A DNA stretch of 64,000 nt from Holosporales bacterium (GTDB lineage Bacteria > Pseudomonadota > Alphaproteobacteria > RUG11792), in assembly GCA_031267075.1 (NCBI GenBank), contig JAIRZU010000005.1, positions 17,399-81,398 on the forward strand. The letters run 5' to 3'. Below are positions 37,241 to 37,946 of the stretch, in pieces (within the stretch, counting starts at the first letter, position 1; every line of letters begins with the position of its first letter). The position numbers and the translations under genes were made by a program. The notes beneath the pieces were generated by a model. That model was given only the letters and a program-made list of their open reading frames with translations, ran no database searches and was not told the DNA's origin.

Positions 37241-37946
37241 ATGAGAAAATACCTGAAACACACAGCAGCCATGATGCTGGTAAGCGCCACCTCGGCATAT
37301 GCCACCAGTCAACTTCCCTCGGATACAGATAGGACACCTAGTGCATCACTCGGGGAGCTGGACGGGAGGATGGTCCGGCTGGAAGATGAGACCCAACGCC
37401 TGAGACAGCAAGTAGCGGGGCTACAGGCCCGCCTTAATGACCTCGTGCAGCGTGGCCCCCCCCCCCCCGCGTCGATCCGAGCGTCCCACACCACCGCTGG
37501 AACCTCTGGTGTACCAAAGAGACAAGTGGTCGGTCGGTGACAGCCTTACAGAGGACGAAGCACGGATACTAACGAGCGGCAGAGGCGAAGAGGCGGCGAG
37601 TGTGGTACTTGAATGCCAAGTTGGTAAGGAGGTGCAGGTCACGAACGCTGATACAGGCCACACGATGGTGCTGGTGAGAATATACAATGTGGATGGCGAC
37701 CGCATCATGAACATCCTATACCAACCCAGCAGAGGAACACCAATCGTTCGAGGGAACCCCCTAACAGTAGACCAAGGACACCACAACTCAGCGTACCACT
37801 TGTTCGTTAACGCCCCCGAGAACGAGGGAGAGCATAACAAGCATCGAGAGATACTCCACGAAGCTGTACGAGCAGCGCAAGAGGGGAGGGAATTCGTCTT
37901 GCCAGTTACCATAACCATCAGCCCATCATCCGAACCTGCGGAGTGA
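37241..37946 (+). pseudogene. Secreted-protein gene split into two ORFs by a poly-C13 tract (phase-variable, frameshifted, or a homopolymer sequencing error)
   Basis: ORF1 (37241-37540) has a signal peptide and coiled coil. The ORF2 frame continues to 37946. A C12 or C15 tract would give one 234-aa product. Confidence 0.5.
37456..37468 (+). repeat. Poly-C13 homopolymer
   Basis: cgtggCCCCCCCCCCCCCgcg. Confidence 0.95.

Follow-up and report, generated by a model that had tools for sequence, protein, structure and literature searches.

This locus raises the question whether two short open reading frames, which meet at a run of 13 cytosines in a metagenome-assembled genome (MAG) of the Holosporales, represent one gene or two, and what the cytosine run means if there is only one. 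Holosporales are obligate intracellular symbionts of protists. In the following, the window is the complete stretch of 64,000 nucleotides that was analysed. In the PGAP annotation of the Holosporales MAG, the region is covered by two 'hypothetical proteins', one starting at ATG 37187 (MDR1332874.1, LBJ69_00485) and the other at GTG 37509 (MDR1332875.1, LBJ69_00490). The MAG contig that carries both has a length of 87.5 kb and is also present in IMG.

The tract consists of exactly 13 C residues (37456-37468, plus strand) and it is here that the reading frame changes. In the assembly, the 5′ half of the gene is ORF1 (37241-37540, plus strand), which starts at ATG 37241 and codes for the predicted signal peptide MRKYLKHTAAMMLVSATSAYA, a helix and the residues GPPPP, to which 23 out-of-frame residues are appended. 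It terminates at TGA 37538-37540, 69 nt 3′ of the tract, and its product has 99 aa. From 37416, a second frame stays open across the tract until TGA 37944-37946. The 3′ half of the gene (37470-37946, plus strand), which was assigned from this second frame, from its codon usage and from its match to the homolog P0005 described below, codes for a proline-rich linker and a beta-rich C-terminal domain without known fold. The 158 codons 3′ of the tract are free of a second lesion, be it a stop codon or an indel. When the tract length was varied in silico from 9 to 16, the product toggled between full-length and truncated versions. Tracts of 9, 12 and 15 C result in a single ORF of 233, 234 and 235 aa, respectively, tracts of 10, 13 and 16 C lead to a product of 98-100 aa, and tracts of 11 and 14 C to one of 109 and 110 aa. 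The direct recount agrees with the position, length and frame arithmetic that the initial annotation had given for the C13 run, and its proposal that C12 or C15 restores a single ORF holds in silico, with 234 or 235 aa. The tract is an uninterrupted homopolymer of hypermutable length inside an ORF; it is located 30% into the gene, away from the extreme 5′ end.

When 1.84 billion representative proteins were searched exhaustively with phmmer, the two annotated halves were joined by a single real relative, P0005, an uninterrupted protein of 264 aa that matches residues 1-231 of the query (E=2.7e-27). Across the junction, BLASTP against P0005 gives E=4e-41 at 35% sequence identity. Up to residue 72, the alignment tracks the frame of ORF1, and from about residue 78 onward it is in the second frame; this places the frame change between about 37455 and 37490, i.e. 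at the tract. In the linker, TPPLEP is matched to IPPEP, followed by the shared pattern V.Q..W..GD.LT ... NILY. The 3′ half is about 34% identical to residues 110-255 of P0005, and nothing in P0005 matches the out-of-frame tail of ORF1. Codon usage gives the same picture. With a log-odds score trained on 26 long ORFs from the window, the 5′ half reaches +0.158 bits per codon and the 3′ half +0.135, each in its own frame, and the score is negative in all ten of the other combinations of frame and segment. For real genes from the window, the score is 0.23 ± 0.08, the lowest value being 0.056. An antisense ORF of 165 aa (37421-37918) was rejected, its codon score being negative, as it is in all minus-strand frames.

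That the tract splits a gene, as initially annotated, is thus borne out by an intact homolog that spans both halves and by codon usage that is gene-like in exactly the two predicted frames. The alternative, two separate small genes that merely overlap at the tract, corresponds to the PGAP and IMG annotation of the contig, but is hardly credible. It is effectively refuted by the homolog, which is a single ORF over both; in addition, the start at GTG 37509 lacks a ribosome-binding site, the product encoded from there lacks a signal peptide, and the part of ORF1 that follows the tract is unmatched in the homolog. With its intact homolog, its codon usage and its conserved promoter, ribosome-binding site and signal peptide, the full-length ORF is a real gene, presumably kept by selection. 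It is almost certain that one gene, coding for an exported protein, has been split here by a single surplus base in a C run prone to slippage. In the public annotation of the MAG, LBJ69_00485 and LBJ69_00490 should therefore be replaced by one frameshifted gene.

The expression signals of the gene are intact. A sigma-70-like promoter with a TG extension, TTGACT-N18-TACGAT, was found in a consensus scan (37157-37186, plus strand). It is conserved at L001, the locus of the homolog, where the -35 hexamer and the surrounding bases are identical to the window and the -10 hexamer reads TACAAT. The ribosome-binding site AAGGAG, assigned by reading the sequence (37227-37232, plus strand), is located 8 nt 5′ of the ATG and is likewise conserved in L001. 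It is followed by the predicted Sec signal peptide (37241-37303, plus strand), which was judged by eye from its segments MRKYLKH, TAAMMLVSATS and AYA, with cleavage predicted after AYA. The signal peptide is nearly identical in P0005, and codons 1-34 show 9 synonymous and 6 nonsynonymous codon differences to the homolog.

Residues 37-71 (37349-37453, plus strand) form a long alpha-helix in the AlphaFold model, with pLDDT values of 70-93. All matches in a PDB profile search are to coiled coils, while the Pfam matches to SlyX and Trimer_CC are weak and below cut-offs; neither Pfam nor NCBIfam gave a match above cut-offs for the protein. For the coiled coil of the initial annotation, the support consists of the confidently predicted helix and of the PDB profile matches, and we keep it as probable. 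Overall, the models have a mean pLDDT of 49.7 for the single sequence and of 42.3 for a two-sequence alignment, which makes them unusable for the C-terminal domain. The protein had also been called a surface protein; what the sequence, which has no lipobox, anchor or known domain, supports is the prediction of a small soluble protein exported by the Sec pathway. Its probable layout starts with signal peptide, coiled-coil helix and proline-rich linker, and these are followed by a C-terminal domain of about 145 aa without known fold.

P0005 is encoded on JGI contig Ga0466704_470502 (L001, 5.5 kb; sample 3300042643) and on Logan contig L002 of sequencing run SRR14710922. Similarity between the window and L001 at the DNA level is limited to 218 nt (window 37137-37354, 83.5% identity), which cover the promoter, the 5′ UTR, the signal peptide and a TSQLPSD.DRTP motif. 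The 104 non-coding nucleotides 5′ of the ATG are 83.7% identical and thus as conserved as the coding part. Beyond the 218 nt, similarity is visible only at the protein level, so that a cassette of promoter and signal peptide with about 84% DNA sequence identity contrasts with mature domains that share about 35% amino-acid identity. In the window, the gene is bounded upstream by tRNA-Tyr (36953-37038, minus strand; ARAGORN, Rfam), with tRNA-Gly beside it (36870-36943). At L001, a UvrD-like helicase is encoded downstream, and an intact DDE transposase is found in the vicinity. As the similarity to L001 starts only at 37137, past the tRNA genes, the gene context differs between the two loci.

Only 2 nt after the stop codon, the remnant of an insertion sequence end begins (37948-38072, no strand assigned). 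In blastn it is 69% identical over 127 nt to L001 4065-4184, which is the end of an intact DDE_Tnp_1 element, and the match is weak for this copy. A better copy of the same end occurs at window 7512-7629 (91%). The intact insertion sequence on L001 (3356-4184) comprises DUF4096 and a DDE_Tnp_1 transposase. Further pieces at 37967-38388 (minus strand), for which Pfam and NCBIfam gave no match, may derive from a second, degraded transposase of the IS5 type. Short dispersed repeat families are common to the window (45218-45422, 57347-57561, 32760-32903, 25810-25874) and L001 (5208-5431, 4348-4491, 3335-3399). These shared repeats are 75-94% identical, a range similar to that between copies within the window. 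Judged from this, L001 may belong to the same genome as the window, and P0005 may be a paralog in this genome or the gene of a co-resident relative.

The TrxB and FBA proteins from the window are present without any difference on Logan contigs of run SRR14710922. At the DNA level, Logan contigs L003 and L004 are 100% identical to window 40046-41341 (1296 nt) and 33007-34401 (1395 nt), respectively. These contigs are 1.3-1.4 kb long and stop short of the tract; they provide an independent assembly of flanking sequence that totals 2.7 kb. As TrxB and FBA contigs are completely identical, the organism of the window is present in this run. P0005 is found there as well, and a read-level test of the tract is feasible on public data.

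Additional searches were made for further versions of the locus. The word-indexed protein search returned only P0001, plus P0005 when an alignment was used as query; it missed P0004 and, in the first run, also P0005, both of which were found by the exhaustive search. P0006 and P0007, which appeared in the exhaustive search, were discarded as repeat-protein noise. Profile and single-protein scans of genome-contig and metagenome-contig collections did not uncover a related locus, and contig look-ups for P0001-P0004 and for 5′-cut versions of the 3′ half did not lead to a second assembly of the locus. Ten predicted products of tracts with C9, C11, C12, C13, C14 and C15 had no exact match among 15 billion proteins. 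Nor did the identifiers of the run, the sample and the locus tags turn up in a literature search.

The tract is not a product of chance. A run of 13 C did not occur in any of 100 dinucleotide-preserving shuffles. The number of G/C runs with 5-8 nt does not exceed the expectation for independent bases, while three longer runs, with 9, 10 and 13 nt, are outliers. CCC is the rarest proline codon in the genes of the window (18.6% of Pro codons), and all seven other runs of at least three prolines use mixed codons. We conclude from these two points that the tract is a feature of the DNA rather than a response to a need for polyproline. The four consecutive CCC codons and the flanking C would then reflect a process at the DNA level, either expansion by slippage or selection for a homopolymer. 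Homopolymers of 7 nt or more are absent from the homolog locus L001, which reads ATACCCCCTGAACCC at the equivalent place; hence, the tract is specific to this lineage. The RNA fold at the tract is unremarkable (z=+0.5), and no Rfam element was found there. A link to a dispersed element of about 125 nt was considered, as the 11-mer GCGTCGATCCG 3′ of the tract also occurs in this element, and was rejected because 34 of 500 shuffles reach the same score.

The element itself has terminal inverted repeats (CCTCCATAATCAG ... CTGATTCTGAAGG) and at least 8 copies in the 64 kb, at 608-726, 15825-15941, 15950-16070, 31577-31695, 39697-39815, 49762-49880, 54639-54757 and 61872-61998, which are 85-98% identical. 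It folds as a long hairpin (z=-2.9), and we take it to resemble the Rickettsia palindromic elements or MITEs. Several copies are located inside ORFs or at their 5′ ends. The copy at 39697-39815 continues as a tandem array to 40083, and such arrays occur upstream of era and at the junction of genes that resemble NADH dehydrogenase and antiporter subunits.

The window contains two other G/C runs of unusual length. C10 on the plus strand, which is G10 on the coding minus strand (39684-39693, context tttttGGGGGGGGGGAGGAGatgcTTG), is located directly 5′ of the GTPase domain of Era. One possibility is that it borders on the Shine-Dalgarno sequence of a TTG start; the other is that it is part, in frame, of an N-terminal extension with about 135 aa, which would start at ATG 40102, overlap the stop codon of trxB and continue via tandem repeats into Era. 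After the C13 tract, this is the second long G/C run whose length, if it changed, could affect expression. A G9 run (24035-24043) is in frame, 55% along the ORF at 22492-25290 (plus strand), which codes for a 932-aa orphan with 87-nt tandem repeats near its C-terminus and, by sequence, a typical signal peptide MKRVIIAGLIGAIASAQLVEKAQA. The G9 run is a candidate for another slippage site in an orphan protein with predicted export. Other large orphan ORFs (27723-29414, plus strand; 51642-53960 and 41170-42087, both minus strand) are without Pfam or NCBIfam match and contain proline-rich stretches and internal tandem or self-similar repeats, which are located at 28257-29371, with periods of 45, 69 and 429 nt, and at 51630-52777. 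They could be effector-like proteins of an intracellular bacterium. A permuted two-piece tmRNA of the alphaproteobacterial type is found at 63401-63792, for which ARAGORN predicts an unusually basic tag peptide ANLNRKGRLVRNLRRRRRAKKAA; a tmRNA of this type agrees with the assignment of the contig to Holosporales.

How can the split gene be interpreted? The reading that we favour, with a confidence that stays somewhat short of even, is that the tract is truly hypermutable, that the population toggles between an ON and an OFF state, and that the assembly has caught an OFF length. According to this proposal, one gene with its own promoter would encode a small protein exported by the Sec pathway, and the beginning of its linker would have become an uninterrupted C run in this lineage. 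This run would be prone to slipped-strand mispairing during replication, which would lead to mixed lengths in the population. Lengths that are a multiple of three (12, 15) would allow synthesis of the complete protein of 234 or 235 aa. With one C more, as in the 13 C of the assembly, a secreted stub of 99 aa would result, consisting of the helix and a nonsense tail of 23 aa, and with two more a stub of 110 aa; the assembled length would represent the OFF state. Switching may be of benefit to the cell. The unity of the gene, the coding-like character of both halves and the intact, conserved expression signals are consistent with such toggling and lend it support, and so do the non-random origin of the tract at the DNA level and an assembly that is not generally error-prone at homopolymers. 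Other observations speak against a switch. The only homolog lacks the tract, which leaves conservation of a switch, or selection for it, without apparent backing. The tract is 30% into the gene instead of at its extreme 5′ end, and the OFF state is predicted to still yield a secreted fragment of 99 aa. The gene adjoins insertion sequence debris, and its genome is rich in repeats; in such surroundings, accessory genes decay. The 15 billion proteins do not include a variant with another tract length, and the tract length is based on one consensus sequence from a metagenome bin.

The same gene could be fully intact, if the true main length of the tract is 12 (or 15) and one C was added by the assembler or sequencer at a long and poorly covered G/C homopolymer. 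All but a single extra base resembles a working gene, as judged from P0005, codon usage, promoter, ribosome-binding site and signal peptide; the source is a metagenome-assembled genome, and the 13-nt run exceeds every internal control run in the window. We nevertheless consider a miscount rather unlikely. Runs of A8, T9 (12871-12879), G9 and C10 leave their ORFs unbroken, which weakens the case only slightly, and GyrB, RpoD, DnaG, BipA, GatA, LpxK, FBA and TrxB are intact. The approximately 50 ORFs in the window include long intact housekeeping genes, and no other frameshift linked to a homopolymer was seen at these runs. Furthermore, a second assembler arrived at identical flanking sequence from the same run, and an in-frame version of the protein is absent from the public protein sets that were searched. 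The tract would be hypermutable under a miscount as well as under ON/OFF toggling. A recently fixed pseudogene, in which +1 slippage in the tract has inactivated an unneeded accessory gene, would involve no selected switching, and the 3′ half would be too young to have decayed. The gene is frameshifted relative to intact P0005, it is a lineage-restricted orphan with two known members, it is located between tRNA genes and insertion sequence remnants in a genome full of dispersed repeats, and a long pure C run could be tolerated if selection against expansion by slippage is relaxed. We judge this unlikely, since the 158 downstream codons are undamaged, codon usage is still gene-like, and promoter and ribosome-binding site are intact. 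Moreover, long G/C runs in simple-sequence contingency loci keep changing their length, and a 13-nt G/C run should do so, too, which makes it physically unlikely that the frameshift is fixed.

Finally, the DNA may truly contain C13 and some full-length protein may be made by recoding, either by a +1 ribosomal frameshift, with peptidyl-tRNA-Pro re-pairing at CCC_C and stalling at polyproline, or by slippage of RNA polymerase. The shift from ORF1 into the second frame is indeed +1, and the run offers repeated CCC_C re-pairing sites. CCC is documented as a +1 shift codon (review PMC5009743), and endosymbionts keep homopolymer-frameshifted genes that are rescued at the transcript level (PMC3017870). 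However, the next codons in the 0 frame (GCG TCG ATC) are neither stop nor rare codons, an upstream Shine-Dalgarno-like sequence is missing, and the unremarkable RNA fold and the lack of an Rfam element do not point to a stimulator either. P0005 is a single ORF without frameshift and without a run of 7 nt or more. In transcriptome-wide data, insertions were confined to A/T runs, and G and C runs were judged not to be prone to slippage (PMC5574713); the type of slippage described for endosymbionts involves at least 9 A or T, while the run is C in our case. Recoding as the explanation for this locus is therefore very improbable. Low-level read-through into the second frame is conceivable, as CCC is a known +1 shift codon.

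Translational ON/OFF switching by slipped-strand mispairing is characteristic of intragenic poly-G/C contingency loci in Neisseria, Haemophilus, Campylobacter and Helicobacter. Phase variation in such loci was reportedly covered by van der Woude and Baumler in 2004 (as cited in PMC4514472). The tract resembles these loci in being an uninterrupted G/C run above the usual threshold of 8-9 nt within the ORF of an exported protein, the export being predicted in our case. As in these loci, the length modulo 3 determines if the product is full-length or truncated, and such runs are otherwise depleted in the surrounding genome. It differs in its position, which is a proline-rich linker 30% of the way along the gene and not the vicinity of the start codon, and in being known from one consensus. 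Such contingency loci in Holosporales (Alphaproteobacteria) were not reported in any publication that our literature search found.

In the Chlamydia, read-level heterogeneity of poly(G) switches the CT166 cytotoxin gene of C. trachomatis ON and OFF, and homopolymer switches occur in the Pmp and Cpn1054 families of C. pneumoniae (PMC4514472). Common features are the intracellular lifestyle, a G/C homopolymer in the gene of an effector or exported protein, and a family with divergent paralogs or homologs. Mixed tract lengths have been measured in reads for Chlamydia, in contrast to the single consensus in our case. By analogy, chlamydial poly(G) may be taken as a precedent in obligate intracellular bacteria. 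In Buchnera and Blochmannia, genes frameshifted at poly(A) tracts are rescued by transcriptional slippage (PMC3017870). There, too, a single homopolymer indel affects a gene that shows no other degradation, and the bacterium is host-associated and has a reduced genome, but these cases concern A/T runs in essential genes of AT-rich genomes, as opposed to a C run in an orphan gene at 49.5% G+C. The poly(A) tract at the 5′ end of inlA causes reversible inactivation of a virulence protein in Listeria monocytogenes (PMC2831843). It is likewise a coding homopolymer in the gene of a secreted or surface protein (with export predicted in our case), but only inlA has the poly(A) type of tract, a position at the extreme 5′ end (with a product of 8 aa) and experimentally shown reversion.

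The mechanism that we propose is a textbook one, and the locus adds at most one more member to a known class, in an unusual host-associated lineage. We regard the finding as a lead that calls for a brief inspection of the reads; it does not amount to a discovery. It is quite improbable that the locus operates as a contingency switch in a symbiont of the Holosporales, within a small family of exported proteins that combine a conserved cassette of promoter and signal peptide with divergent mature domains. If this were true, stochastic control of host-facing proteins by homopolymers would be suggested by the tract together with the G9 run in the orphan with signal peptide and the G10 run where era starts, in an order for which no such control is known to have been described. 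In a more exotic variant, C13 would be decoded by a +1 shift tied to polyproline stalling, and output would be sensitive to the state of EF-P or tRNA-Pro. If the tract is found to vary, it would be a first candidate contingency locus in Holosporales, and the orphan exported protein would be a likely host-interaction factor that is worth expressing.
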